Source of the DNA: a virus
Strand: one strand, 5' to 3'
DNA length: 64,000 bases
IMG/VR virus record: IMGVR_UViG_3300009124_000001
The position numbers and the translations under genes are program-made. Shown in pieces: positions 8,755 to 58,405 of this stretch (within the stretch, counting starts at the first letter, position 1; every line of letters starts with the position of its first letter). The notes under the pieces are model-generated. The model saw only the letters and a program-made list of their open reading frames with translations. It did not search any database and was not told the origin of the DNA.

Positions 8755-9005
8755 TAGGGTTCAAGGACCTTAATTCTATCTTCCAACATATTTAGGCGGA
8801 CATACAGATCATCGAAGAGTTCCCGCATGTTGAGATAGTCCTCATACCCTTCTGGTTTATATTTGAGCATATCGGGTCCAGGTTGCGGCATGTGTCCGAA
8901 TGCCTTCTCCAATACACCAATTCTATTGCCAAGATTCTCTAACCCTTTGGCAATCATCTCCATGTGCTCTTTATACACATCAAGGAATTCTTCTTGTTGA
9001 TTCAT
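8754..9005 (-). CDS. Hypothetical coiled-coil protein
   Basis: Overlaps both neighbours at start/stop. Confidence 0.75.
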   Translation of the reverse strand: MNQQEEFLDVYKEHMEMIAKGLENLGNRIGVLEKAFGHMPQPGPDMLKYKPEGYEDYLNMRELFDDLYVRLNMLEDRIKVLEP

Positions 9006-9637
9006 AGGAATGGTACTGATAACATCATTTCATTGTTGGGTTCATATTCCTTACAATACATCATTGCTTCCGTAGTGTAAAGATCCCAGGCAAGTGCAAT
9101 ACGAAGATCATCTGATTCATTCGTTTCTACCTTGTGCTCTACCCATGATGGAAAGAGTGTCACCGTGCCTGCTTTCGGCATTGGTTTGAAGTTTCCCCCA
9201 TATGTAGAATATCCTGGTATCACATATTCTGTTGGTATCTTACTATCAGTCAATAACATATTACCTGATAGGAATGTGTTCTCATGTATTGAATGATGAT
9301 GAATAGGTAATGCTTCCCCTGGTTTCAATACATTGAACCATCCACGAATCCATACTCCTGTTGGCATCTCATATACAATCTGATTAGCAAATTGTGAGTA
9401 CATACTTTCAAGAATATCAAGAAGACCATAAATGTCCTCCTGAAAATAATTCTGCTCATACCATGGGGTGTTGGGATTCTGGGAAAGAATTTTTTCCACA
9501 AGTTCTATCCGAACACTGTCTACCCACATCGGCGCATCTACCAATGGCGCGAAGCGAGTATTAGGTTCCCAACTCCGCCACCAATATAACTTGTCGGAAG
9601 TACCGTAACGTCTCCCTGCACAATCCTCAATACTCAT
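9002..9637 (-). CDS. 2OG-Fe(II) oxygenase (HxH..H, TIGR02466-like)
   Basis: WFNV..HHH..LSG; FPSWVEHKV; RIALAW. Confidence 0.85.
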   Translation of the reverse strand: MSIEDCAGRRYGTSDKLYWWRSWEPNTRFAPLVDAPMWVDSVRIELVEKILSQNPNTPWYEQNYFQEDIYGLLDILESMYSQFANQIVYEMPTGVWIRGWFNVLKPGEALPIHHHSIHENTFLSGNMLLTDSKIPTEYVIPGYSTYGGNFKPMPKAGTVTLFPSWVEHKVETNESDDLRIALAWDLYTTEAMMYCKEYEPNNEMMLSVPFL

Positions 9638-9673
9638 AGATAACCACGCGGATTTTTTCTCGGATTTTTTTTC

Positions 9674-9841
9674 TTAGATATCCTCTGACTTTTTCAGAAG
9701 AATAGTACCATCAATATCTTCACTCCATTCTAGAACGTCCCCTTCGACCCATCCGAGTTCCTCGATGAGTTCCTCTGGAAAGGTGATGTAAGGATTGTCA
9801 GACTCGTCTACTTGCACTGGGATAGTGTATCTCTTTGACAT
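9674..9841 (-). CDS. AbrB/MazE/SpoVT-like DNA-binding protein (55 aa)
   Basis: Manual translation MSKRYTIPVQVDESDNPYITFPEELIEELGWVEGDVLEWSEDIDGTILLKKSEDI. Confidence 0.75.
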   Translation of the reverse strand: MSKRYTIPVQVDESDNPYITFPEELIEELGWVEGDVLEWSEDIDGTILLKKSEDI

Positions 9842-9928
9842 GGGAATAATTCTCTAATATTTGTATATATGAGTATTCCCCCCAATACTGAGAAAGAACC
9901 CCCTTGTAGGGGATTCTAGGGGGGTCTC

Positions 9929-10063
9929 TCAGTCTTTCTCAGCACTCTCCCCTTCGGGGGGTGAACCTATGAGAGGTTCTGTGCCGTACTCCCAGTCATC
10001 GTAGTCCTCGTCATTGCGAATCTTTTTGTGGAGCTCGTTCTGTTGATTGAAGTCGTGTGTCAT
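9929..10063 (-). CDS. Small acidic hypothetical protein (44 aa)
   Basis: Manual translation MTHDFNQQNELHKKIRNDEDYDDWEYGTEP..; GAGGA RBS upstream. Confidence 0.6.
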   Translation of the reverse strand: MTHDFNQQNELHKKIRNDEDYDDWEYGTEPLIGSPPEGESAEKD

Positions 10064-10172
10064 AGATAATCCTCACAGTTTCTCGCAGACATAACCATAT
10101 GTATCCTAACTCGTCCCTCAGAGTAATATTTCTATACTCAGAAATTTTTTGAGGTAGGGGGAAACGAAACAT
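10011..10172 (-). CDS. Possible small hypothetical protein
   Basis: 3' part of track ORF from MFRFPLPQKIS; overlaps the next gene by 53 nt. Confidence 0.35.
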   Translation of the reverse strand: MFRFPLPQKISEYRNITLRDELGYIWLCLRETVRIIYDTRLQSTERAPQKDSQ

Positions 10173-10292
10173 TGAATAATATATCGAGGTCGGTGGGATA
10201 CTGTTGTAGGTTAGAGAGAAGGTACTTTTTAATATACCGCTACCGCGATATAACATAACGGGGCAACGGTAACTGTCAAATAGAGGGAGAGA

Positions 10293-10487
10293 TTAACTCT
10301 CCCCAGTGACTACATCATAGCAGAATCCTTCGAGGATTAGGTAGTCGCACCACTGTGTATATTGTGTGAGTTGTTCATTCAAACCAGTGTCAATTAGGAA
10401 CTGTGCTAGATCGATTTGTTCGTCTGGTGGTAGTGAACCAGCATCATAAAGATCTAGCAGAGTTTCATACTTAGCAGGGATGCTCAT
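10293..10487 (-). CDS. Hypothetical protein
   Basis: ATGA overlap with upstream gene. Confidence 0.75.
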   Translation of the reverse strand: MSIPAKYETLLDLYDAGSLPPDEQIDLAQFLIDTGLNEQLTQYTQWCDYLILEGFCYDVVTGES

Positions 10488-10651
10488 TGTGTAGAATAGC
10501 GGAGTGAATCAGTGAGTGCTTGTTGATAGTTAGGGAATGGTCCATACTTAGGACAACCATCGTAATCGTATCGCCAGAAGTGTTTACGATTCTTCTCCCA
10601 GATCTGTACAGCAACTGGGGGATTTGTGTCTAGTTGGATAGTCTTACTCAT
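10484..10651 (-). CDS. Hypothetical protein (55 aa)
   Basis: Manual: MSKTIQLDTNPPVAVQIWEKNRKHFWRYDYDGCPKYGPF..; ATGA overlaps at both ends. Confidence 0.7.
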   Translation of the reverse strand: MSKTIQLDTNPPVAVQIWEKNRKHFWRYDYDGCPKYGPFPNYQQALTDSLRYSTQ

Positions 10652-10776
10652 GACCAATCGCCCCTGACATCCTCTGCAAATTCAGTGGTGGCACTATCAT
10701 CGTAGAGGTCAAGGTCTGGGAGGTCAGTGTCATCAAGCAGGGCATCAATCCAGTCCTCATTGAGTACATCGTTCAT
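10648..10776 (-). CDS. Acidic hypothetical protein (42 aa)
   Basis: Manual: MNDVLNEDWIDALLDD..; GGAGG RBS; ATGA overlaps. Confidence 0.65.
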   Translation of the reverse strand: MNDVLNEDWIDALLDDTDLPDLDLYDDSATTEFAEDVRGDWS

Positions 10777-10949
10777 CGGTAATCCTCCAAGTCTTGTGCA
10801 TCAAACTGTCGGTTTCGTTGTTGCTTATCAGGAGCAGAATAGTCATCGATTTCCTGATACTTTTTGTTGGATCCAAACTGTCTCTTTTCCCGAATAGATT
10901 TGGGACGGCGAGAGTTATGCAGATCGTTGCGTTTGTAAGTGCGACCCAT
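10773..10949 (-). CDS. Hypothetical protein (58 aa)
   Basis: Manual: MGRTYKRNDLHNSRRPKSIREKR..; first gene after the promoter at 10988-11016. Confidence 0.7.
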   Translation of the reverse strand: MGRTYKRNDLHNSRRPKSIREKRQFGSNKKYQEIDDYSAPDKQQRNRQFDAQDLEDYR

Positions 10950-10987
10950 GAGAGTGTGTGATGTGTGTGTTATCGAGGGACTGTGTA

Positions 10988-11016
10988 ATTATGTATGATC
11001 TTGGAGGAAAAGTCAA
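10988..11016 (-). promoter_or_regulatory. sigma70-type promoter
   Basis: TTGACT-N17-CATAAT. Confidence 0.75.
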
Positions 11017-11052
11017 GGGGTCTGTGAGGTTTTGAAAGTGTCCTCCTATGTG

Positions 11053-11081
11053 TTGACAGAGAGGGCGTGATAGGTTACACT
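11053..11081 (+). promoter_or_regulatory. sigma70-type promoter with no downstream plus-strand gene
   Basis: TTGACA-N17-TACACT. Confidence 0.65.
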
Positions 11082-11165
11082 CCAAGGCAACAACAAAACA
11101 GGGTATTTATATCACATTAAAACACCCAATATAGAACACACAAGTATATTTAATTAACCATTTCT

Positions 11166-11210
11166 TTTTCCACAATGTTTTCCACAATTCTCCGCATATC
11201 CTGTGGAAAA
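11166..11210. repeat. Cluster of cyanobacterial-type DnaA boxes (candidate origin)
   Basis: TTTTCCACA at 11166 and 11178, TTCTCCGCA at 11188, inverted TGTGGAAAA at 11202. Confidence 0.6.
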
Positions 11211-11213
11211 GTA

Positions 11214-11840
11214 TCAAACAGGGATGACATTGAATGTGAGAGTGATACGTTCATCTGATTGATTTGATTCATATCCATGGGTGAGATTAGATGGATAGAT
11301 GAGTACATCACCTTGTGCATATGGTACAGTTGCTTCTTGCAAATTGAATGCAGTCATCTGTTGGAAAGGTAACATCATGACAGGGAACATTTGAGACATG
11401 ACATTTCTTTTGAATTTTAAGTATGAGTGTTGTTTTACATCATAGTTAATGAACATTGTGCCAGAGAATAAGCAATTGGAGTGTTCATGTGGGGCATAGA
11501 TAGCACCTTTATTTGCGAGTTCAATGTATGCATCAGAGATACCAAAGTTCGATGCATAGGCGAGACCTGAATCGTTATGCTTTCTGGCAACATCAAGGAG
11601 TGCAGATTTGAGAGAGGGGAGATCTTGAAGGATCTTATTTGTTGGACCGATTTGAGAAACATTATGGCAGAGTTCGTGTCTGTTATGATCAACGAAATCT
11701 TCATTTTGCATCCAGCGAAGTATTTCAGGAATGAAATCAGAGAGGTCGTATTTAGTGACAGGAGTCATGAATAGACCATAAGTTTCAAACTGAATCTGGT
11801 CATCTAGATTAGGAGAAAGATTGATTTCTTGCTCTGCCAT
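11214..11840 (-). CDS. 2OG-Fe(II) oxygenase (HxH..H)
   Basis: PHEHSNCLFSG; YPSNLTHG; RITLTFN. Confidence 0.85.
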   Translation of the reverse strand: MAEQEINLSPNLDDQIQFETYGLFMTPVTKYDLSDFIPEILRWMQNEDFVDHNRHELCHNVSQIGPTNKILQDLPSLKSALLDVARKHNDSGLAYASNFGISDAYIELANKGAIYAPHEHSNCLFSGTMFINYDVKQHSYLKFKRNVMSQMFPVMMLPFQQMTAFNLQEATVPYAQGDVLIYPSNLTHGYESNQSDERITLTFNVIPV

Positions 11841-11912
11841 TGTAAATTAGTGCGGTGAGTGTGTATTATGTAGTGTAGCATGAAATGGGGGTGTTGTGGA
11901 CGCTTCTAGGGG

Positions 11913-12056
11913 TCACAGATCGAGTGGATTGAGATAGCGTACATCACCTTTGAGAATATCATCGAGAGCGTTTAGGAGTTCGTGTCCGTTAGAGGGGAAA
12001 GTGTGCAGGTAAGAGATAAAGAATTGACGTTGTGCGAGTTGGTTGGTTTGAGTCAT
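11913..12056 (-). CDS. Hypothetical protein (47 aa)
   Basis: Manual: MTQTNQLAQRQFFISYLHTFPSNGHELLNALDDILKG.. Confidence 0.6.
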   Translation of the reverse strand: MTQTNQLAQRQFFISYLHTFPSNGHELLNALDDILKGDVRYLNPLDL

Positions 12057-12112
12057 TTGTTGAATTCGAGGATGACAATGAACGTGGCAAGAATGACGAG
12101 AATTGATGTCAT
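12053..12112 (-). CDS. Hydrophobic micropeptide (19 aa)
   Basis: MTSILVILATFIVILEFNK; ATGA overlaps at both ends. Confidence 0.5.
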   Translation of the reverse strand: MTSILVILATFIVILEFNK

Positions 12113-12441
12113 CCGAGGCGCATGGAAGAGAAGAAAGGAACGATGGAAATACCTTGGGCAGTGTTCATCGAAACGAACCAATCGAAGTTCTTTTGAAATA
12201 CACCGTCACCAGATTCGCCGTGCTCTTTCAGAATAGCATTGAGGCGAGATTTGGTGGTATTGGTTTGCCAACCACCATCAAAGAGGCGGATGAAGTTATC
12301 ACCGATCTCGGCAATCTTGTTACCGTGAAGGCGAACAACAGAGAGGTTATCTTCCTCGTTAAAGGAGACAGAAGTGTTACCAGACTGCCAGTTGGCGTTG
12401 TTAGCGATGGCGGTGTTCATTGCCTGCTCGATCTTACGCAT
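12109..12441 (-). CDS. Hypothetical early protein
   Basis: MRKIEQAM..LHGNKIAEI..GGWQTNTTKSRLNA; follows a promoter element. Confidence 0.85.
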   Translation of the reverse strand: MRKIEQAMNTAIANNANWQSGNTSVSFNEEDNLSVVRLHGNKIAEIGDNFIRLFDGGWQTNTTKSRLNAILKEHGESGDGVFQKNFDWFVSMNTAQGISIVPFFSSMRLG

Positions 12442-12490
12442 GATTTGAGATTGAAGGACGTTTGTGAAGTGAAATCCCCTCCACTCATCT

Positions 12491-12549
12491 AATATAGAGC
12501 ATTTTGAGGGTCGTGCCTGTTTTGTGTGCCAGTTCGCGGACTGGTCTCA
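12491..12549 (-). promoter_or_regulatory. Palindrome + N28 + TATATT early promoter element
   Basis: GACCAGT-CCGCG-AACTGGCACA-N28-TATATT. Confidence 0.75.
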
Positions 12550-12870
12550 GCGGTCGAATTGTTTATGCAATTCAACGTATTGTGTGACTTCCTCGTTGAT
12601 GTATTCCTCAATCAATTCCTTTGCTTCGGCAACAGTGTCGGCACCAAAGATCTTCTCGTAGATATACACTCCGCTGGGAAGTTCTTTGCGTTGGTTGATA
12701 CGATACTTTGGAGGGTTAGGATTACCGATGTGCTCACCATCGAGGTCTTCGGTAATAGTGAAGGCGGCAAGACGTTTCTCACCCTGCCAGACAGAATCTT
12801 CGGTCACCCAGATGTCTTCAACGTAGTGAATGAAATTGTTATGACGCTTGGAGGATTCGATGATGAGCAT
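12547..12870 (-). CDS. Hypothetical protein
   Basis: ORF track, minus-strand gene run. Confidence 0.75.
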   Translation of the reverse strand: MLIIESSKRHNNFIHYVEDIWVTEDSVWQGEKRLAAFTITEDLDGEHIGNPNPPKYRINQRKELPSGVYIYEKIFGADTVAEAKELIEEYINEEVTQYVELHKQFDR

Positions 12871-12912
12871 GATGCGGAAAATGCGGAGAGTTGTTGTTAG
12901 TTTGCGGAAAGA

Positions 12913-13185
12913 CTACATGCCGTTGAGAAAATCGTGCAACTCATCGAGATATTGTTGCTCGGTCTCGAAATAGCGTCCATGAATATACTTTGGAAACTCG
13001 TGCTTGTTAAACATTTCAGAGGCGACATTGCAGTCTTGCTCATCATAACCCATCTCAACGAGATTTGCGACGTAAGGATTGTGAATTGCCATGAGGTTGT
13101 TATCAGTTTGAAGTGCGATTGTGCAGGGGTCGTTGTAGTTGTGGTTGTTCATATTATTCCACCAATTGGCGTCGTACTTAGGCAT
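12913..13185 (-). CDS. Hypothetical protein
   Basis: ORF track; NPYVANLVEMGY; start uncertain. Confidence 0.7.
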   Translation of the reverse strand: MPKYDANWWNNMNNHNYNDPCTIALQTDNNLMAIHNPYVANLVEMGYDEQDCNVASEMFNKHEFPKYIHGRYFETEQQYLDELHDFLNGM

Positions 13186-15179: not shown

Positions 15180-15347
15180 CTGATTCTTTTCTCTTTGCTT
15201 TGCGTTGCTAATCTGTCGCTCCAACTCATACTTAACTGTGAATAGATTACGACTCATATACTCTTCCCACTCGTTATCTTTGATGAGTTTGAGTATATTC
15301 TCTATCTGCATGTGTGCAAATAGTAGTCTATCAAATTCTGAGATCAT
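15129..15347 (-). CDS. Hypothetical protein
   Basis: ORF track; C-terminus runs through the promoter element. Confidence 0.75.
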   Translation of the reverse strand: MISEFDRLLFAHMQIENILKLIKDNEWEEYMSRNLFTVKYELERQISNAKQREKNQCASSENCPPNPPQAPK

Positions 15348-15943
15348 GGAAATTCAGGAGCGTTGGGTGGGTTACTCATAGGACGGACACACATGTTGAA
15401 ACTTAATGTCAGACGATTTGTGTCACTCTTCTGCATATGTACGCCATGACGAACAAACGAAGGGAAGACAATGATGTCTCCTTCCTTAACAGATAGATCC
15501 ATGATTGGACTCTGTTGAAATAGTTGTGTGTAACCACTGATTGTATGATCCAAGTTCATATTCTCAAAGTAAAACTTAGCATCAGTCTCAGGATTGTACT
15601 GAATGAATACAACTCCTGAAAAATTGATAAATTCAGGGAACTGGATGTGGTGATGGGGTTCCTGGTGACAACCAGAATTATACAAATTTAACCAACTATT
15701 CAAGATCTCAATGTCTGACCAGTTGGGGAAGTATTGATAGAGATATGGTGCTAGAACTGTGCCTAACTCTTCGGGATGAACTACATCTTTCTCATCAAAG
15801 TATGTGGTTTGTAGTTCACAATTCCAACGACCATTTGTGTTGCTAAGCAGATGCTCAGCACTCTGTAATAGAGAACCGAACACCTGCTTGTGGTTGTGAA
15901 TGTGAGCGTGATGATATTTAACTGGGAACAGAGTTTGCGACAT
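15344..15943 (-). CDS. 2OG-Fe(II) oxygenase (HxH..H)
   Basis: SWLNLY..QEPHHH..FSGV; FPSFVRHGV; RLTLSFN. Confidence 0.85.
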   Translation of the reverse strand: MSQTLFPVKYHHAHIHNHKQVFGSLLQSAEHLLSNTNGRWNCELQTTYFDEKDVVHPEELGTVLAPYLYQYFPNWSDIEILNSWLNLYNSGCHQEPHHHIQFPEFINFSGVVFIQYNPETDAKFYFENMNLDHTISGYTQLFQQSPIMDLSVKEGDIIVFPSFVRHGVHMQKSDTNRLTLSFNMCVRPMSNPPNAPEFP

Positions 15944-17936: not shown

Positions 17937-18538
17937 AATTTAATACCTGATGTCAATTGAAAATTAGCAGACACTGTAATTCGTGCATTTGTATTATCAC
18001 CCTGTGGAGTAACTTGATGATGTAAGTATGATGGGAAGATGACTATATCACCTTCCTTCACATCTGGGAACCATGTATTTGTTGCTGGGTAGTGCTTACT
18101 GAAATACCCATGATGCACGTCTTGATTAGGATCGTAGAATACAAACTTACCATCCCTTTCAGGATCATACTGCATGAAGTAAGCACAACTGAATGCAGTG
18201 TTATTTCCACCACAATGTGTATGTATCTCTTGCGAATCACCCCGATGATATACATTTATCCATGCTTCTGACATTTTGATGGTCGAGGTGACGCGCCCAC
18301 CCAATTGGACGTGCATGTCCATGAGATTGTCAGAAATATAGTTGTTGAACAAATCCCATGAGAAATCATCCTGATTTGTATCACTATCAAAAGATGAGCG
18401 AACAGTACAGTTCCACTCATCGGGTTGTTTTAAGTTTGCTGTGGTGAGTTGATATGTCAGCATGGACTTAATATCCTCATGACGCTTCACCTCACCATGA
18501 TAATACCACTTTGGAAATAGATTCTGAACTTTACCCAT
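17933..18538 (-). CDS. 2OG-Fe(II) oxygenase (HxH..H)
   Basis: AWINVY..QEIHTH; FPSYLHHQV; RITVSAN. Confidence 0.85.
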   Translation of the reverse strand: MGKVQNLFPKWYYHGEVKRHEDIKSMLTYQLTTANLKQPDEWNCTVRSSFDSDTNQDDFSWDLFNNYISDNLMDMHVQLGGRVTSTIKMSEAWINVYHRGDSQEIHTHCGGNNTAFSCAYFMQYDPERDGKFVFYDPNQDVHHGYFSKHYPATNTWFPDVKEGDIVIFPSYLHHQVTPQGDNTNARITVSANFQLTSGIKL

Positions 18539-19785
18539 TATGCAACCAGCGAGAGGGGAGGAATACCTTTGACAAATATAGCATCAACCACATTTTGCAG
18601 GCGCTTGACCACATGCTTGCCATAAGTTTTGTGAACAGGCACTGCAACGAAACCAGTCGGTTTGTTGTAGAAACCCCACTGCTGGGGTTGCAACTCACCA
18701 GACTGCAAACGTGCAGCGTCATCCTTATCTAGGCGAATCACACGACCGATAGTCTGTGCCATCTCAACCACGTTAAGATTACGCAGCAGGATGCAGTGAG
18801 TGAGACCAGGGACGTTGATACCCTCAGAGAGAATAGAATAGTGGAAGACAACAAACTTACGACCAACTTCCTTACCCCATGCAGTCAGCGTGTCGAAGAA
18901 TACTTCACGAGAGACCTTCTTACCGTCAATGATTGCACCGAACTTAGAGGTAACGTGCATGACATTGTAACCACGCTCTTTGAGTTCGAGCAGCAGGGTT
19001 GTGCGAGAGATCATGTTACCCAGCACACGAGAAGAGGGCACAGCAACAAGAATCTTGCTAGCGTGAGTCTCATCGATCTGGTCAATAATGTCACGCACAG
19101 TGTCAGCATCAACGTCGTGGATGTTGTGCTTGTTACGAGTCAGATCGGTCTCGAAAGGAACAATCGTAGGGGGGAGAATGTGACCCTGCTCGATGAGTTC
19201 AGGAGCAGGAACATTGCAGAGAATGCCACCGTACACGTCACTATTGCCCATCGAACGATCGTGACGACGAGAAATACGAGGAGTGGCAGTAAAGAAGTAG
19301 CAATGATTAGCGACCATGGATGTTGCAGCAGTGCCAATAAAGAACTGCTTGGCAACACTGTTGTGTGCCTCATCGAAGTATGCACAGTTGATAGCAATAC
19401 CACTGTCGATTACACGAGGGAGAGAATGATAGGTGGTGAAGATAATGCAGGACTCACCTGCTGCCCGTGCAGTGTTAGCGAACAGTGCAATCTTCTCGGG
19501 TTTGGTGCTGTGGAAATAGTGAGTTTCACCACTGTGAGCATGGCAAACATGCACGTTGCTGTTGTCAATGAACGACATGAACTCGTCGCACAGTTGATTA
19601 GCAAGCAGGATGCGAGGAGCAACAACAACGATGGTACGATTAGACTCAGCAAGCAGTTGCAATGCGTGTTGAATCATGATGATAGTTTTGCCGCCACCAG
19701 TGGGAACAATCACCTGACCCTTGTCAGCGGTCTGCATTGCATCGAGAGCACGCTGCTGGTGGGGACGGAGGGTGATGGACATCAA
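18538..19785 (-). CDS. SF2 DEAH helicase (ResIII-like)
   Basis: LRPHQ; PTGGGKT; DEAH; TATP; LSEGINVP; QTIGRVIR. Confidence 0.92.
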   Translation of the reverse strand: MMSITLRPHQQRALDAMQTADKGQVIVPTGGGKTIIMIQHALQLLAESNRTIVVVAPRILLANQLCDEFMSFIDNSNVHVCHAHSGETHYFHSTKPEKIALFANTARAAGESCIIFTTYHSLPRVIDSGIAINCAYFDEAHNSVAKQFFIGTAATSMVANHCYFFTATPRISRRHDRSMGNSDVYGGILCNVPAPELIEQGHILPPTIVPFETDLTRNKHNIHDVDADTVRDIIDQIDETHASKILVAVPSSRVLGNMISRTTLLLELKERGYNVMHVTSKFGAIIDGKKVSREVFFDTLTAWGKEVGRKFVVFHYSILSEGINVPGLTHCILLRNLNVVEMAQTIGRVIRLDKDDAARLQSGELQPQQWGFYNKPTGFVAVPVHKTYGKHVVKRLQNVVDAIFVKGIPPLSLVA

Positions 19786-20893: not shown

Positions 20894-21223
20894 TCATCGT
20901 TCGTCAATCGTAGGTAATAGTTCGTTGCCTGGGTGATCATTTGTCTTACCACGGTATGCTTTAACATGGTTGAAGTATGTATCATCAACCTCTAACTCAT
21001 CCCAGCAACTTTCAATAACAACCATACAACATTTGTTGGTTGGTCTTCGTGAACCAGGAGGATTGTCTTTCTCACTGACACAAATTAAGATGTGATTGTC
21101 ATCCAGGTATTCAATGTAACCCTCATGACCTCTCCAACGAACATGAGCGCCAACTGATAATGAGTTGACAATGTTTCTGATCTCTAATGCAGGTGCTTCT
21201 GAAATAAACAGGGGGGTAGTCAT
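20894..21223 (-). CDS. Hypothetical protein (SH3-like)
   Basis: LSVGAHVRWRGHEGYIEY..ILICV. Confidence 0.75.
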   Translation of the reverse strand: MTTPLFISEAPALEIRNIVNSLSVGAHVRWRGHEGYIEYLDDNHILICVSEKDNPPGSRRPTNKCCMVVIESCWDELEVDDTYFNHVKAYRGKTNDHPGNELLPTIDER

Positions 21224-21822
21224 AGAGTTAGATAAGATGTGGGGTTTCCAAAATCACCTCGGATCATGATATTGAATGCTAGTGAATACCTCCTGGCAGT
21301 GTCCAAATTGTTCTGAACATAGTGTACCAGATGAGATGGGAAGATCACAACCATACCGTCCACTGGCGTAAGTGTCCACTGGTTACTATTATACACATTT
21401 GTGTGTGCTTTGTGTGGTGAGATAACATCGTGCCTATTATCTACAAACACCAAGTCACCACAATTAGGATGAGTTCTCAGATACAATATACCTGAGAACA
21501 TAGAGTTTCTATGCATGTGCTCATTAGATTTCTCCAAGTATTGGTGTATATTGACCCATGAGCAAGGTGAATCAATACTATGTGATTCATCAATACCCAT
21601 TACACCATACACATATTCTCTGATGTGTGGTAATAGAAACTCTTTGATACTTGGCAGTTTGTTAATTACATCCTGGTCAACAGATTGACTACCTAATCCA
21701 GGACCTGCAATGTTTGCATATTCCCAATCAGCAATCTCATCAATCACATCAGGCATAGTCTCATCAACTGTGACATATACTGGTGATGAAAATAGGGGGA
21801 TGACATCAGTGGAAGTTTGCAT
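21220..21822 (-). CDS. 2OG-Fe(II) oxygenase (HxH..H)
   Basis: SWVN..HMHRNSMFSGILYL; FPSHLVHYV; RYSLAFN. Confidence 0.88.
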   Translation of the reverse strand: MQTSTDVIPLFSSPVYVTVDETMPDVIDEIADWEYANIAGPGLGSQSVDQDVINKLPSIKEFLLPHIREYVYGVMGIDESHSIDSPCSWVNIHQYLEKSNEHMHRNSMFSGILYLRTHPNCGDLVFVDNRHDVISPHKAHTNVYNSNQWTLTPVDGMVVIFPSHLVHYVQNNLDTARRYSLAFNIMIRGDFGNPTSYLTL

Positions 21823-25509: not shown

Positions 25510-27093
25510 TTACTCCTTGTAAATCGTTTGTTTTAAGAACTCGTAACTTGACGGTAGTTTACTGCACCAATCATACATCTCCTTCTCCCATTCGTCAAAC
25601 CTGAGGTCTGCCGTCGCAATCTCCTGTTCATCAACTTCTGGGATTAGACCATTCTGTAATCGTTTAAGATGCAACGTATGCCTATTTATAGGACTGAACC
25701 CCATACCTGCTGCAATGTACCTTAGACCATCATTGTGTGCTGGATCACCTGCAAATTCATAGATAACATTCTTCTCTGATGCATATCTCATGAAAAGATT
25801 ATCTAATGCACCAGTAGAGAAATCATACTGAATATGATCAGATACTTCTTCCCAATACTTTGTCTGTCTAGCAGAGAAGGCATAGTGGGCAGCAATAAAG
25901 TTCTTGAATCCTTCAATCTCCAAGTCACACACTAAGTTTAGCATGTCAACTTCGACACGAGGAACAATACCTTCACGTCCAGCAAGAGTATTACATAGTC
26001 TCACGATCTGCTCATGTGTTGTGAGCAAACCAGTTGCTTCTAATGGTTCAACAAAACAATTAGATAGACCAACTGCACAGACATTCTTTACCCATGATCT
26101 CTTGTGCTTACCATTCTTGAATGGAACTTTTCTGAATGATGCTTCACCTGCTCTCTTACTACCTCTGGTCTTACAGAGATAATTGTAGAGTTCAAGTTCA
26201 GGATCATCAGTGAAGTCTTTGGAGTGAACATATCCAACACCAGATCTCTCCCACAGGGGAACATCCCACACCCAACCATTATCAATGGCAGTGCAGTTTG
26301 TGCTGTTTGTAATATCTTTCTCTTTGTCTTCGTGTGGCATGTGGCAGGTAACTGCCGTGTCATTGAGTAGACAACCACCATCATTTACATGGAAGGATAC
26401 AAACTCCTCACCCATGAATTTTTCAAGCAACAGTGACTTGAATCCTGTGCAATCAATATACAAATCATACTCTAACTTACGACCATCTGAGGTCTGTAAT
26501 GATTGTACCCACCCACGTTCATCTTTATGGCACACTTCTACATCGCCTTGAATATATTCAAGACCCATAGGTAGACACCAGTTCTCTTTCAACCACTGTC
26601 CAAACTTGATAGCATCCATATGGTATGCAGTATCTTGTTCAAACAAGAATGGTTTCTGATCTGTCATCTTGTTGTAGTGAGCAAGTTGCCCAACAAGATT
26701 ATGCAGACGTGCAAATGTGTTCCTAGTATATTTCTCTGGTTGCAGCAGATTGAGAGAAAACCACGACATCCAACCATGTGGACATAGATTTAGTCGCTCT
26801 TCTGCTGACCCGAAAGGATAATCCCAAGTTTCTCCTTTCTTGTAGAAATCATTGAATCGAATATTGACTTTATATGTGGATCCTGTATCTTTCATCCACA
26901 TGTGATCTTCTAAACCAAGGATGGCAAAGAAGTCATTGATCTGACCTAATGTAGATTCACCCACACCAATGGTGGGATAATTAGGTGACTCAATTAGTGA
27001 TGTTTTAATATGTGGGCAGAGTTTCAAAAGGGCGGCAGCGGTCATCCAACCAGCAGTGCCGCCCCCCACGATGAGGACATTACGAACGTGCAT
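25510..27093 (-). CDS. prnA: Flavin-dependent (tryptophan-type) halogenase
   Basis: GGGTAG; GVGEST; catalytic Lys TYKVNIRF; DCTGF; GWVWDVP; FVEPLEATG. Confidence 0.92.
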   Translation of the reverse strand: MHVRNVLIVGGGTAGWMTAAALLKLCPHIKTSLIESPNYPTIGVGESTLGQINDFFAILGLEDHMWMKDTGSTYKVNIRFNDFYKKGETWDYPFGSAEERLNLCPHGWMSWFSLNLLQPEKYTRNTFARLHNLVGQLAHYNKMTDQKPFLFEQDTAYHMDAIKFGQWLKENWCLPMGLEYIQGDVEVCHKDERGWVQSLQTSDGRKLEYDLYIDCTGFKSLLLEKFMGEEFVSFHVNDGGCLLNDTAVTCHMPHEDKEKDITNSTNCTAIDNGWVWDVPLWERSGVGYVHSKDFTDDPELELYNYLCKTRGSKRAGEASFRKVPFKNGKHKRSWVKNVCAVGLSNCFVEPLEATGLLTTHEQIVRLCNTLAGREGIVPRVEVDMLNLVCDLEIEGFKNFIAAHYAFSARQTKYWEEVSDHIQYDFSTGALDNLFMRYASEKNVIYEFAGDPAHNDGLRYIAAGMGFSPINRHTLHLKRLQNGLIPEVDEQEIATADLRFDEWEKEMYDWCSKLPSSYEFLKQTIYKE

Positions 27094-52255: not shown

Positions 52256-52957
52256 CTATGCGAAAAAAGACGATAGTCCTTCAAGTACAACTTCACTTTT
52301 CACCCCAGTCTTGGGATTTTCAATTTCCAGTGTGTGAGACAATTTGGGCAGAGTCTCAAAGAACGCCTGAACCGCTTGGAACTGTTCGTTATTCATGTCA
52401 CCCAGGAAATCCTTTGCTTCTTTCTTGGTGAAAGACTCATAGGTCTCGTCGCCATCATATACTTTATCAATACAGTCCGCAGCAAGATCGAAGACATCAT
52501 CAATATCAGGTTCGTCTTTCATGTTACGATCCACGAATGCATCCAGGGCAGGATACTTCATTTCAATTTTCACTTGATCATTGATTTTGACGATCTTCTT
52601 ATGTTCTCTTGGAACAACAACCTCCACTTGGTCAAGATTGACTTCAACCTCAACTTCGGTCTCATTGTCATCGGGGCAAGTGATCTTAAATTCACTAACC
52701 TCACCAACTGCCCTAGAACGAATCTTCAAGAACAGATATTCAATCTCAAATGTTGCTAATTTTTCAACATCCTTGACATTACTACAAGCCTTCAAGATAG
52801 TCTTGACTGCTTTGATCATCTCCTTCTCGTCTTGGGTTTCCATTGCGAGGTACAGGAGTTTTTCCTCTTTGACAAGGAAAGGACGGTAAGTGACTTTTGT
52901 TCCACTGACTGGCAATTTGCAGTCATACTCAGGCACTACAAGTTTAGGTAAAGGCAT
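52256..52957 (-). CDS. gp26: Baseplate hub subunit gp26
   Basis: MPLPKL..P.Y; YRPFLVKEEK; FLKIRS..VGE; LEGLSSFF. Confidence 0.95.
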   Translation of the reverse strand: MPLPKLVVPEYDCKLPVSGTKVTYRPFLVKEEKLLYLAMETQDEKEMIKAVKTILKACSNVKDVEKLATFEIEYLFLKIRSRAVGEVSEFKITCPDDNETEVEVEVNLDQVEVVVPREHKKIVKINDQVKIEMKYPALDAFVDRNMKDEPDIDDVFDLAADCIDKVYDGDETYESFTKKEAKDFLGDMNNEQFQAVQAFFETLPKLSHTLEIENPKTGVKSEVVLEGLSSFFA

Positions 52958-54613: not shown

Positions 54614-55649
54614 GGCGAAAGAATCTAAAAAACTACCAACCACTAAGAAAAAAGATTCCAGCGGGAAGGGTAGTGGTGATAGACTTATTTATCCCATGAC
54701 CACACCTCGTGGTCCTTCGACCTCTGATGGTGCAATTAGTCGTGGTCATCGCTTCGAGACCAAGCAGATCGACTACATAAAATTAATGATCTATGATCCT
54801 GAGACTGCGAACCCTTACAACTATGTAGGTCAGAATAGCAGAAAAGGTAATCCTGGCAGAAGATACAACAGAAACCAAATCTACAAGACTATCTATCTGT
54901 ATCTGCCTCACGATCTGAACGAAACATATAGCACATCATACGAAAAGGCAGCACTTGGTCCTTTTGGTGATATTGCTGTTGAAGCAATGAGATCAGGTGA
55001 TACTTCGGAAGTTGCTAAGAAGATTTCTAATGCAGCAACTTCTGCAAAACCTGAGGTTGCATTCAGTGCTGTTGCTGGTATCTTCAATGGTGCTGCTGGT
55101 GCCTTTGGTGTTGACGGTAACATGAGCAAGAACTCTCTTGCTGCTCTGTCTAGTGGTAAGGTCTTCAACCCATATGAAGAGACTACATTCAAAGGTGTGA
55201 ACTATCGCTCTCACAGTTTTACCTTTGACATGGCACCTCGTAATCCCCAAGAGGCGAAGAACATCCAGGCAATCATTCATGAATTGAGAGATTCGATGCT
55301 TCCTGGCACATCTGGTGAGCAGTCTCGTTGGTTGACGATTCCTAGATTCTTCCGTGCTGAGATTGTACGTTACTCACCTAGGAGATCTGGTTCTGCTGCT
55401 CTTGGTGAAGAGAAACTGAACGAACCTGCAATGATGAGAACTCTGTTGACATTCCCAGTCAATATGGTTCTTACCAACATGCAGGTAAACCTGACACCCA
55501 ACGGTCAGAATACCTCCCTTAGATATGATCTGAGTGGTATTGATTATGGTCCTGCACAGTACCGAATGACTCTGAGTTTCGATGAGACTGCATTCATCAC
55601 CAGAGACGTGTACAACGCAAACAACAACAACGGGAAATCTAAAAAGTAA
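54612..55649 (+). CDS. gp48: Baseplate tail tube cap gp48
   Basis: LIYP; IYLYLP; NPYEE..F.G..R..SF.F.M.P.N..EA; L.F.E. Confidence 0.9.
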   Translation: MAKESKKLPTTKKKDSSGKGSGDRLIYPMTTPRGPSTSDGAISRGHRFETKQIDYIKLMIYDPETANPYNYVGQNSRKGNPGRRYNRNQIYKTIYLYLPHDLNETYSTSYEKAALGPFGDIAVEAMRSGDTSEVAKKISNAATSAKPEVAFSAVAGIFNGAAGAFGVDGNMSKNSLAALSSGKVFNPYEETTFKGVNYRSHSFTFDMAPRNPQEAKNIQAIIHELRDSMLPGTSGEQSRWLTIPRFFRAEIVRYSPRRSGSAALGEEKLNEPAMMRTLLTFPVNMVLTNMQVNLTPNGQNTSLRYDLSGIDYGPAQYRMTLSFDETAFITRDVYNANNNNGKSKK

Positions 55650-56563
55650 TGCCTTATTTTTCTTACATACCTGACGTTAGGGTTCGCGTATCGTCATTCC
55701 GACAAAATAATGTCGAACCTTTCGTCGCAGCAAAGAATATCTTTCGCAGAGTCAAGATTCGCGATAGCATTCAAGATGATGTCTTGGGTTTTGAACAATA
55801 TAGCGTCGGAAACAACGAAAGACCCGACCAAGTTGCATATGACAAGTATAGTGACTCTGGTCTAGATTGGGTCGTTTTGTTGTGCAACAACATTATCAAC
55901 ATATATCAAGATTGGCCTCTTTCTGAGGAAGAACTCTATAAGATGGTTGAGAAAAAATATCTCAGCGTTAATGGTATTCACCATTATGAGACAAATGAAG
56001 TAAGAGACCAGTTAGGCAACATTATCATCAAAGAGGGCAAAATTGTAAACTCTGATTATGTTGCATATCGACCAGATGGCACTACTGTTGCTGATTCGGT
56101 ATATCCTGTGTCCAACTGGGAATACGAGAGAAACCTAAACGACGAAAAATCGAACATTTGGTTGCTCAACCCTCTCTACGTCACTGCGTTCGTCGAGGAA
56201 TTTGAAGAATTGCTTGAATATGCACCAAACGAAGAACTTGGTGATGGTGAGCAAGTTAAGGTCAGTCCCAATACTGTGGAAGAGATCTTTATCACCAAGA
56301 AGAAATACTATACTACTGAGTATGGTCTTGCTTCTAGTATTGAGTTTAGTGGTCAGCAAGATCTTGGTAACAGAGATGTGACTGTCACAACCAATGACGC
56401 GGGTGCAACTATTACCACATCCACCACGACTGCCGCTGGAACAGGTATTGTGAACTCTTCTGGTGTGGTTGCTGGTACAACAGACGCAAGCACCACCACC
56501 AGCAGCACAACGGCAAGCGGTCAGGCAACTGGTGGGTCTTCTAGTGGATCTTCTGGATATTAA
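55649..56563 (+). CDS. gp53: Baseplate wedge gp53
   Basis: YFSYIP; KNIFRRVK; ERPD.VA..Y.DS.LDWVVLL.NNI..WP; HHYET; Ser/Thr/Gly tail. Confidence 0.92.
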   Translation: MPYFSYIPDVRVRVSSFRQNNVEPFVAAKNIFRRVKIRDSIQDDVLGFEQYSVGNNERPDQVAYDKYSDSGLDWVVLLCNNIINIYQDWPLSEEELYKMVEKKYLSVNGIHHYETNEVRDQLGNIIIKEGKIVNSDYVAYRPDGTTVADSVYPVSNWEYERNLNDEKSNIWLLNPLYVTAFVEEFEELLEYAPNEELGDGEQVKVSPNTVEEIFITKKKYYTTEYGLASSIEFSGQQDLGNRDVTVTTNDAGATITTSTTTAAGTGIVNSSGVVAGTTDASTTTSSTTASGQATGGSSSGSSGY

Positions 56564-57206: not shown

Positions 57207-57485
57207 TTAGTGATGGTGGTGGTGCCTGCGACGGTAGCAAGGTTCCCACGTCCACCTGATTCGTTGTGACCAGTACCCAGGGTAGAAGGGTGTCGGTTCA
57301 ACCCATGTGTCAACCACTTGCTTTCTCCTGCACATCCTTGGTGGTGGGGGTGCAGAGTGATAGTAGTGCCTCTCTACATGGTGGTGGTGCTTGTCACCTG
57401 TGAATGGTTCCCAAAACTCTCCCCAGGTCACTGCCTGAGCAGGTGCTGCTGTGAGAAGTAACAGGGGGAGAGCAAGGAATTTCAT
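57207..57485 (-). CDS. Secreted His-rich small protein
   Basis: Signal peptide MKFLALPLLLLTAAPAQA; HHHH and C-terminal HHHHH. Confidence 0.8.
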   Translation of the reverse strand: MKFLALPLLLLTAAPAQAVTWGEFWEPFTGDKHHHHVERHYYHSAPPPPRMCRRKQVVDTWVEPTPFYPGYWSQRIRWTWEPCYRRRHHHHH

Positions 57486-58405
57486 CAGTCGTCGTTAGCG
57501 AGTTTAGCGAAGTAGGAGAGGTCAGGATCCTCATCCCCATTCAATGATTCTACACTAGAACCGAACCCACTGTTGAAGGCAGGTGCCGATTGTTTAGCTG
57601 TCTCCTCGGGGGAGAAGAATGCCACGGGATCTTCCTCTTCCTCTGCCTGTGCTGCCTGAGCGGCACGATTGGTCTTACCAAGGACAAGGTTCAGACGTGC
57701 TTCAAGTTCAGTGTAGGACTTGAAGTTCTTGGGATCAGTGAAGTCAGCAAGAGAGTATTGCTGATTGTAGAGCTGTTCCAACTGCTCGTCATCAAAGTCA
57801 CCCAGTACAGAGGCAGAGGCGAACTCAGAACGATCGTAGTTCCAGTAACCATCCTGCTTGACGATCTTCAACTTGAAGTCAGCACCCTTCCAGAAGCAGA
57901 AAGGATTGATGGGTTCTTCATCTTCAAACTGGGGCTTCATTGCCTCAACAATCTTGTCATGGATCTTCTTGCCATACTTGTACAAGAAGACACGACCCTC
58001 GTTCTCAGGGTGAAGAGGATCCTTCACAACATAGATGTTGGAGTAGTAGGACAGTTTACGCTTCTGCTTACGAGCAACTTCCTTGTCAGAATCCAGACCG
58101 CTGTTCCAGAGGATGCGATTCAGATCACCAACAGGATCCTTCTGACCGAGAGTGGTCAGGGAGTTCTCGATGTACCAACCACCAGTACCTTGGAAGGCAT
58201 GGGACCAGACCTGTGCCCAGGGCAGGTCTTCGTTGGTAGGAGCGGGCAGGAAGCGGATGACAGCATAACCGTTGCCTGCTTTGTCAACCTCTGGTTTCCA
58301 GAGGCGTTCGTCGGGACCGTTGCCCGAACCTTTGCTCATCTTTTCAAGTTCCTTGGTCAGGTTTGCAATGGAACCAGAGGACTTTTTGAGCGATGCGAAA
58401 GACAT
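57485..58405 (-). CDS. gp32: Single-stranded DNA-binding protein gp32
   Basis: MSFASLKK; D.R.WKP..DKAGNGYAVIRFLP; WYIENSLTTLG; acidic tail LSYFAKLA. Confidence 0.97.
   Translation of the reverse strand: MSFASLKKSSGSIANLTKELEKMSKGSGNGPDERLWKPEVDKAGNGYAVIRFLPAPTNEDLPWAQVWSHAFQGTGGWYIENSLTTLGQKDPVGDLNRILWNSGLDSDKEVARKQKRKLSYYSNIYVVKDPLHPENEGRVFLYKYGKKIHDKIVEAMKPQFEDEEPINPFCFWKGADFKLKIVKQDGYWNYDRSEFASASVLGDFDDEQLEQLYNQQYSLADFTDPKNFKSYTELEARLNLVLGKTNRAAQAAQAEEEEDPVAFFSPEETAKQSAPAFNSGFGSSVESLNGDEDPDLSYFAKLANDD

Follow-up and report, generated by a model that had tools for sequence, protein, structure and literature searches.

In bacteriophage T4, the origins oriF and oriG are units of about 100 bp that consist of a promoter and a downstream A+T-rich unwinding element, in which an R-loop transcript primes the leading strand, and another origin, oriE, depends on an early promoter (PMC3016281). 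Here we analyze a locus of comparable construction in the IMG/VR virus record IMGVR_UViG_3300009124_000001, of which one stretch of 64,000 nucleotides was studied (referred to as the window). It is an intergenic region in which two promoters placed back to back, an AT-rich tract and a cluster of binding boxes for the initiator protein DnaA lie side by side, and an original prediction, made from the DNA letters alone, had described it as an oriC-like element. Judged from its sequence, it is a non-coding cassette that T4-like cyanophages (Kyanoviridae) conserve in a single copy. We think that it is the best candidate for the place where these phages start their replication, an assignment that is plausible and unproven.

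Neither the start nor the mode of replication has been mapped in the cyanomyoviruses that abound in the ocean. The only statement on a cyanomyovirus origin that we found in the literature is the prediction of a single theta origin for Syn9 (PMC2984593). No report linking DnaA boxes with T4-like cyanophages was found in the literature searched.

Comparison with known origins and DnaA-binding loci

The cassette resembles T4 oriF (uvsY), oriG and oriE in being a compact unit of about 100–160 bp with the promoter directly before the A+T-rich element (Kreuzer and Brister 2010, PMC3016281), and it belongs to a T4-like genome encoding gp41, gp59, gp32 and UvsW. At the level of sequence it fits the minimal definition of a T4 origin, a promoter directed into a downstream AT-rich tract, which is also how the original prediction had characterized T4 origins and how oriF and oriG are described (PMC3016281). 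As in oriE, its promoter appears to be an early one of the host sigma-70 type, as it has a -35 hexamer of that type; in contrast to oriF and oriG, the cassette has no MotA-type middle promoter. Other differences from T4 are that the promoter is antisense and serves no gene, and that boxes for host DnaA flank the unwinding element, which is not the case in any T4 origin. Moreover, the candidate origin is one conserved site per genome, whereas T4 has several non-homologous origins.

In phage lambda, DnaA footprints are located downstream of the antisense pO promoter, which produces the oop RNA by ori-lambda, and the activity of pO affects the initiation of replication (PMC3985674). The cassette shares with this locus a short antisense-directed promoter followed by DnaA boxes in a control region of the phage (PMC3985674). 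However, lambda has its own O and P initiators and uses the host replisome, it belongs to an unrelated phage family with non-homologous sequences, and its boxes only resemble the consensus, whereas those of the cassette are perfect and conserved.

The cyanobacterial oriC beside dnaN, with its basal unwinding system (PMC4674748, PMC8287927), has the identical 9-mer TTTTCCACA, the same 11–12 and 21-nt periods and an adjacent AT-rich stretch. In contrast to it, the cassette has only 2–4 boxes without a DnaA-trio run or a fixed orientation, it is surrounded by phage early genes with no dnaA or dnaN nearby, and the promoter is an integral part of it. The datA and DARS loci of E. coli are likewise small clusters of DnaA boxes outside the chromosomal origin, which act on DnaA and not by unwinding. 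Both IHF or Fis and a fixed box geometry are needed for their action. The cassette shows only the box cluster of these loci, which for their part are not tied to a promoter and an AT-rich tract, and only bacterial chromosomes are known to carry them.

DnaA boxes of the window

Three exact copies of TTTTCCACA and one degenerate copy, TTCTCCGCA, are present as the original prediction had read them (Table 1). Its identification of the 9-mer as the cyanobacterial DnaA box is well founded, as this was established by gel-shift and footprinting experiments with DnaA(IV), in which binding was clear with two boxes and not with one (PMC4674748). All nine positions of the boxes match the host-type consensus, and the spacing of the pairs, exemplified by the 12-bp direct pair of the window, is compatible with a cooperative, helical-phase arrangement.

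The exact 9-mer occurs six times in the window against 1.15 copies expected, a number that was reached in none of 100 shuffles. Three of the six copies are packed into 45 bp, and by our composition-based estimate the chance of such clustering within 64 kb is about 1e-7. If one mismatch is allowed there is no enrichment (19 copies, 24.5 expected), and only the exact 9-mer stands out. Counting over whole genomes, another check linked to the prediction, showed it to be rare and clustered at the element or within about 1 kb of it. The phages checked have 3–8 exact boxes per genome of about 170–200 kb, with multi-box clusters at the module or, in three phages, at most about 1 kb away; S-WAM1 has six exact copies in 185 kb, three of them at the cassette.

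Conservation of the cassette in relatives

Positions 9000–13000 of the window match Synechococcus phage S-WAM1 (Sokavirus) with 98% coverage and 89% identity, and the window therefore comes from a T4-like cyanomyovirus (Kyanoviridae). Every gene around the element is carried by the minus strand. The true intergenic gap measures 264 bp (10950–11213), and the homologous gap of S-WAM1, of 265 bp, is the largest in the annotated 10-kb stretch. The earlier description of the region as one of the largest intergenic gaps holds; a ranking of gaps by open reading frames (ORFs) within the window is confounded by spurious ORFs.

When the gap was used as a BLAST query, over 130 Synechococcus phage records matched in the box region, and a typical module as query gave 193 records. 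We inspected 17 sequences belonging to more than 12 genera: the window, S-WAM1, one uncultured contig and 14 named phages (ACG-2014d, S-MS29, Syn19, S-SM1, S-RIM44, S-CAM8, S-CAM22, S-BM1, S-RIM32, S-IOM18, S-P4, S-MbCM100, Syn9 and S-PM2). All 17 have the same order along the gene strand, namely, the upstream stop codon, the DnaA boxes, the AT-rich tract, the antisense promoter, the sense early promoter and the downstream gene. The antisense promoter, also found in 17/17, follows the pattern TTGACA-17-TAAGA[C/G]T, often with TGC before it and with a spacing of 17 nt (18 in one sequence), and, counted from the first base of the -35 hexamer, the first box lies 72–118 nt away. At the equivalent place, the relatives have the sense promoter TTGACA-17-TAnAAT. 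The 9-mer is kept across many genera, which bears out the conservation in relatives that the original prediction had set as a check.

The cassette is syntenic as well, always lying among small early genes, with T4-GC 389/390/393 and a large baseplate gene downstream of this block. Which gene directly precedes the boxes varies with the phage: it is a 2OG oxygenase in the window and other small ORFs elsewhere. Since the antisense promoter is conserved although it faces different genes, antisense control of one particular gene is unlikely. In some relatives a second exact box pair lies 0.25–0.9 kb from the main cluster (Table 1), and the window has none.

Selection on the 9-mer

The gaps of the window and S-WAM1 are 91% identical overall, and only the box region is scrambled, with three perfect boxes in each phage. 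In S-WAM1 and the uncultured relative all three boxes point the same way, and their starts are 9 and 21 nt apart; with respect to S-WAM1, the window has two boxes flipped and 12 nt apart. The inverted arrangement that could form a stem has been lost in S-WAM1 while the 9-mers were kept, so that the conserved unit would be a double-stranded protein site rather than a hairpin.

IMG/VR was also scanned with the core of the antisense promoter alone, with no box in the query, which gave 37 distinct modules with a correctly spaced TTG -35 element. At least two exact boxes lie within 200 nt downstream in 33 of these modules, whereas none of 56 chance 15-mer matches has any. The 37 modules contain 77 exact, 11 one-mismatch and 36 two-mismatch boxes, a 7:1 excess of exact over one-mismatch boxes where neutral drift would lead to proportions of 1:27:324. 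Among the one-mismatch variants, nine of the 11 are changed at positions 1–3 and one at position 5, i.e., in the tolerant part of TTWTNCACA, and the CACA core of the box varied once. This confinement of the rare variants to known degenerate positions of the DnaA box points to a protein site and not to an RNA hairpin. The stretch from the promoter core to the first box has a mean of 31.5% G+C in the 33 box-bearing uncultured modules.

These figures bear on the idea that the boxes are due to chance or are a neutral relic of host-derived DNA with no present function. Cyanophages often carry such DNA, but clustering at a chance level of about 1e-7, retention of the boxes across more than 12 genera and the 7:1 ratio make this hardly credible.

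The orientation of the boxes is much less constrained. Writing > for TTTTCCACA on the strand of the antisense RNA and < for its inverse, the 33 modules have >< (21 cases), ><< (4), >> (3), ><> (2), ><<< (2) and <>< (1), and the boxes are all < in S-WAM1 and all > in ACG-2014d and S-RIM44. Direct neighbors are 11–13 nt apart in the modules and the common inverted pair 23–24 nt. Box pairs in viral contigs generally favor periods of 11–12 and 20–21 nt. The same periods dominate in cyanobacterial chromosomes, in which a direct exact pair (within 30 nt) was present in 331 of the 401 genomes sampled from the class, and the reversed control almost never. A wider scan of genome contigs for box pairs gave matches in many phyla, with no named marine Synechococcus among the matches listed. 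Seven unrelated viral contigs of IMG/VR have arrays of 3–4 TGTGGAAAAC boxes with 11 and 21-nt periods, which look like arrays of DnaA boxes in other phage lineages.

An alternative is that the 9-mers are read by something other than DnaA, either as an RNA or DNA hairpin (a terminator, a processing site or a small RNA) or as the site of a phage protein, the match with the DnaA box being coincidental. The inverted pair could in fact form a 9-bp stem in the window and most relatives, and the spacer between the boxes contains a conserved TCCGCA motif. However, the inverted pair is absent from S-WAM1, ACG-2014d and S-RIM44, all nine positions coincide with the host consensus, the variants obey the degeneracy of the DnaA box, and the same pairs with the same periods fill cyanobacterial genomes. 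We therefore consider a different reader very improbable. An RNA element was discarded, as Rfam gave no match, RNAalifold gave 0 conserved pairs for the predicted antisense transcript of 16 phages, and the transcript of the window folded no better than shuffles (z-score -0.95). An intrinsic terminator was discarded too, because none was called here and the potential stem is not followed by a U-tract. In our opinion, the site is almost certainly a selected protein-binding array.

Reader of the boxes

Domain IV of DnaA (PF08299) was not found encoded in any of the five phage genomes searched (S-WAM1, Syn9, S-PM2, ACG-2014d and S-RIM44), and the same search was positive in 10 of 14 control genomes, Synechococcus elongatus included. 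A phage-encoded DnaA was thus rejected as the reader for these five genomes, and host DnaA would be the most economical one. We think that the boxes are probably read by it.

AT-rich tract and promoters

The predicted A/T-rich tract of about 80 bp before the boxes turned out to be 78 bp long with 27% G+C, and it includes both the 60-bp stretch richest in A+T and the 50-bp duplex of lowest stability in the window. At a length of 80 bp, the cassette shares the rank of least stable duplex with a stretch at about 34910. Over whole genomes, the tract of S-WAM1 is in the top 0.04% of 80-bp windows for instability, and that of Syn9 is in the top 0.3% when 50-bp windows are compared and in the top 1.3% with 80-bp windows.

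A promoter scan recovered the two promoters that had been proposed. The plus-strand promoter TTGACA-17-TACACT would fire into the tract with no gene to serve, as no ORF follows it on the plus strand, and it is one of only three consensus-like promoters of that strand in the window. Back to back with it is the minus-strand promoter TTGACT-17-CATAAT (11016–10988). Besides these two sigma-70-type promoters, the tract contains a T4-type late-promoter motif, TATAAATA, and the gap therefore has three promoters. The motif occurs seven times in the window against 1.8 expected, with each copy on the local gene strand.

Replication origin or other functions

We would give a rough probability of 0.45 to the cassette being a replication origin or an origin-timing element. 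In the mechanism that we propose, host RNA polymerase would fire the backward antisense promoter early in infection, and the antisense transcript would form an R-loop in the AT-rich tract. The R-loop would then prime or open the DNA for the T4-type replisome of the phage itself, as at T4 oriF, oriG and oriE. Host DnaA bound to the boxes, which border the tract on its far side, may modulate the R-loop step by helping the melting, by halting the transcript at a fixed place or by coupling the firing to the replication and energy state of the host. The elements of the cassette, their conservation and the selective retention of the exact 9-mer are direct observations; that DnaA binds, that the promoter is active, that an R-loop forms and that replication starts here is what we infer. 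The most specific form of the proposal is that T4-like cyanophages begin or time replication at one conserved origin of the R-loop type, with host DnaA as its gate, which would couple phage copying to the replication, energy or light state of the host; this is tentative and on balance doubtful.

Several observations are neutral or weigh against an origin. No turn of the cumulative GC skew coincides with the module in the window, in Syn9 or in S-WAM1, and the profile is monotonic in the latter two, which is a neutral or negative sign for an origin. DnaA-trio runs, defined as (NAN) repeated at least three times and at most 16 bp from a box, are not above background: the longest run beside any box is 2–3, and a run of 3 is reached by 31% of random positions of the window. 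Phages differ in how their boxes are oriented to the AT-rich tract; this variability, together with the lack of trios, makes a canonical, directional unwinding driven by DnaA unlikely. To our knowledge, a T4-type replisome does not need DnaA. Furthermore, in S-WAM1 and Syn9 the tract is among the least stable sites of the genome, yet not the single least stable one, and in the window the late-promoter motif TATAAATA explains a small part of its AT-richness.

The distribution of the boxes is another argument of this kind. P-SSM4 retains both promoters (the antisense one as TTGACA-17-TAAGAG) and a long AT-rich tract between its sense promoter and the place of the boxes, and it has no perfect boxes, with only a degenerate CCCACA remnant at their position. 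When phages were picked regardless of boxes, a cluster was found in four of five Synechococcus phages (Syn9, S-PM2, S-SM2 and S-ShM2) and in just two of eight Prochlorococcus phages (P-SSM7 and P-TIM68); it is absent in P-SSM2, P-SSM4, P-HM1, P-HM2, P-RSM4, MED4-213 and S-SSM7. P-SSM4 and the other phages devoid of a cluster make the boxes look accessory to the cassette. The difference between the phages of the two host genera is suggestive only (one-sided Fisher test, about 0.09). A direct exact pair is present in just one of 18 cyanobacterial genomes of 1.6–1.9 Mb, the size of those of Prochlorococcus, compared with 331 of 401 overall, which hints that the boxes of the phages track the usage of such pairs by their hosts and is worth following as a lead. 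With no trios, no fixed orientation, no skew inflection and no perfect boxes in P-SSM4, the oriC-like architecture of the original prediction does not stand. Its interpretation is upheld in part, the element being a conserved unit of promoter and unwinding element with putative docking sites of the host-DnaA type.

The main rival to an origin is a control element or insulator for transcription, in which DnaA located past the upstream stop codon would act as a roadblock or regulator with no role in replication. It would end the read-through from the upstream early genes, block invasion by antisense RNA and possibly tune the sense late and early promoters to the level of host DnaA. The boxes are never farther than about 10 nt from the stop codon of the upstream gene, which is the usual place of a terminator, and an intrinsic terminator was not found at the site. 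The inverted pair, which is the commonest arrangement, could block transcription from both sides, and three promoters are packed beside the boxes. DnaA is known to regulate lambda pR, and Schaefer and Messer are said to have found in 1989 that DnaA-box complexes block E. coli RNA polymerase in an orientation-dependent manner. The boxes of lambda pO are also documented (PMC3985674). However, the boxes of S-WAM1, ACG-2014d and S-RIM44 have a single orientation, and in mutually opposite senses; besides, an insulator leaves the conserved gene-less promoter without a reason and does not explain the extreme AT-richness between this promoter and the boxes. We consider this explanation rather unlikely.

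Next comes a DnaA sink or modulator like datA or DARS, by which the replicating phage genomes would draw off or recycle host DnaA and thus shut down or reprogram initiation in the host. The boxes are perfect, clustered, of predicted high affinity and kept whatever their orientation, and such independence of orientation suits a simple titration; some phages even have a second cluster nearby. On the other hand, there are only 2–4 boxes per genome, and their strict coupling with a promoter and an AT-rich tract would be left unexplained. Moreover, the chromosome of the host is in any case broken down or silenced in infections by lytic cyanomyoviruses. This function seems improbable to us.

Neighboring genes and annotation

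The coordinates of the cassette and of related sites are collected in Table 1.

Table 1. Features of the cassette, its flanking genes and related sites (window positions unless a genome is named)
Feature	Coordinates	Strand	Basis and remarks
Downstream flanking gene, 58-aa basic ORF	10773..10949	-	phrog_3226, phrog_1464; annotated in S-WAM1; would be transcribed from the sense promoters
Sense early sigma-70-type promoter, TTGACT-17-CATAAT	10988..11016	-	Promoter scan, 10/12 positions; serves downstream minus-strand genes
Antisense gene-less sigma-70-type promoter, TTGACA-17-TACACT	11053..11081	+	Promoter scan, 10/12 positions; points at AT-rich tract and boxes
AT-rich tract with properties of an unwinding element	11088..11165	.	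78 bp, 27% G+C (window 44%)
T4-type late-promoter motif, TATAAATA	11104..11111	-	Inside AT-rich tract, gene strand
DnaA box 1, exact TTTTCCACA	11166..11174	+	Direct reading and pattern search
DnaA box 2, exact TTTTCCACA	11178..11186	+	Direct reading and pattern search; follows box 1 at a period of 12 bp
Degenerate box TTCTCCGCA, 2 mismatches	11188..11196	+	Direct reading; TCCGCA core between boxes kept in most relatives (alignments)
DnaA box 3, exact TTTTCCACA	11202..11210	-	3 nt beyond the stop codon of the upstream gene
Upstream flanking gene, 2OG-Fe(II) oxygenase-like	11214..11840	-	PF13759 (E 1e-10), phrog_81; stop codon abuts boxes
Copies of TATAAATA	3568, 11104, 25683, 28474, 38885, 52980	-	Most of the seven copies just upstream of gene starts
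Copy of TATAAATA	54541	+	
Second box pair, ACG-2014d (KJ019028)	37690/37701		
Second box pair, P-SSM7 (NC_015290)	46602/46623		
Second box pair, S-ShM2 (NC_015281)	53068/53084		

The upstream gene is one of four 2OG-Fe(II) oxygenase paralogues within 13 kb, all of them on the minus strand (9002–9637, 11214–11840, 15344–15943 and 21220–21822); three match PF13759, and the one at 9002–9637 was assigned through its annotated S-WAM1 homologue. A tryptophan-halogenase-like gene is located at 25510–27093 (-; PF04820, E 6e-93), the gp32 gene at 57485–58405 (-) and the gp53 gene at 55649–56563 (+). The UvsW helicase of T4 unwinds R-loops at origins, and a UvsW-like helicase gene lies at 18538–19785 (-), about 7 kb from the cassette.

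In public records, S-PM2 (NC_006820, 19177–19333) has tRNA features annotated over the cassette that ARAGORN does not find, and gp86 of Syn9 (52477–52635), a 52-aa ORF annotated over the boxes, is probably spurious. Some deposited records start or end at the cassette or beside it, such as WH25-B (PQ638372, 1–155), S-SZBM1 (141–822) and S-M1 (OP917831, 171735–172012 of 172388), which may be due to arbitrary linearization.

Outlook

We think that the cassette is valuable as a precise and conserved origin candidate of about 160 bp in phages that can be grown in the laboratory, such as Syn9, S-PM2 and S-WAM1, in whose genomes it lies at about 52.6, 19.3 and 48.6 kb, respectively. Whichever its function, it is a useful annotation landmark, although public records now show spurious ORFs or tRNA features in its place. 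If it were a roadblock or regulator instead of an origin, it would represent a new use of DnaA as a transcription insulator in a phage.

If host DnaA does dock on the boxes, a T4-type phage would still listen to the initiator of its host even though it brings its own complete replisome. Phage replication would then be tied to the cell cycle of the host and to its light-dependent physiology, and the DnaA theme of lambda, P1 and plasmids would be extended to the T4 family. A DnaA-gated origin at this place would be the first origin of the T4 family to use the host initiator, as well as the first mapped origin of a cyanomyovirus.

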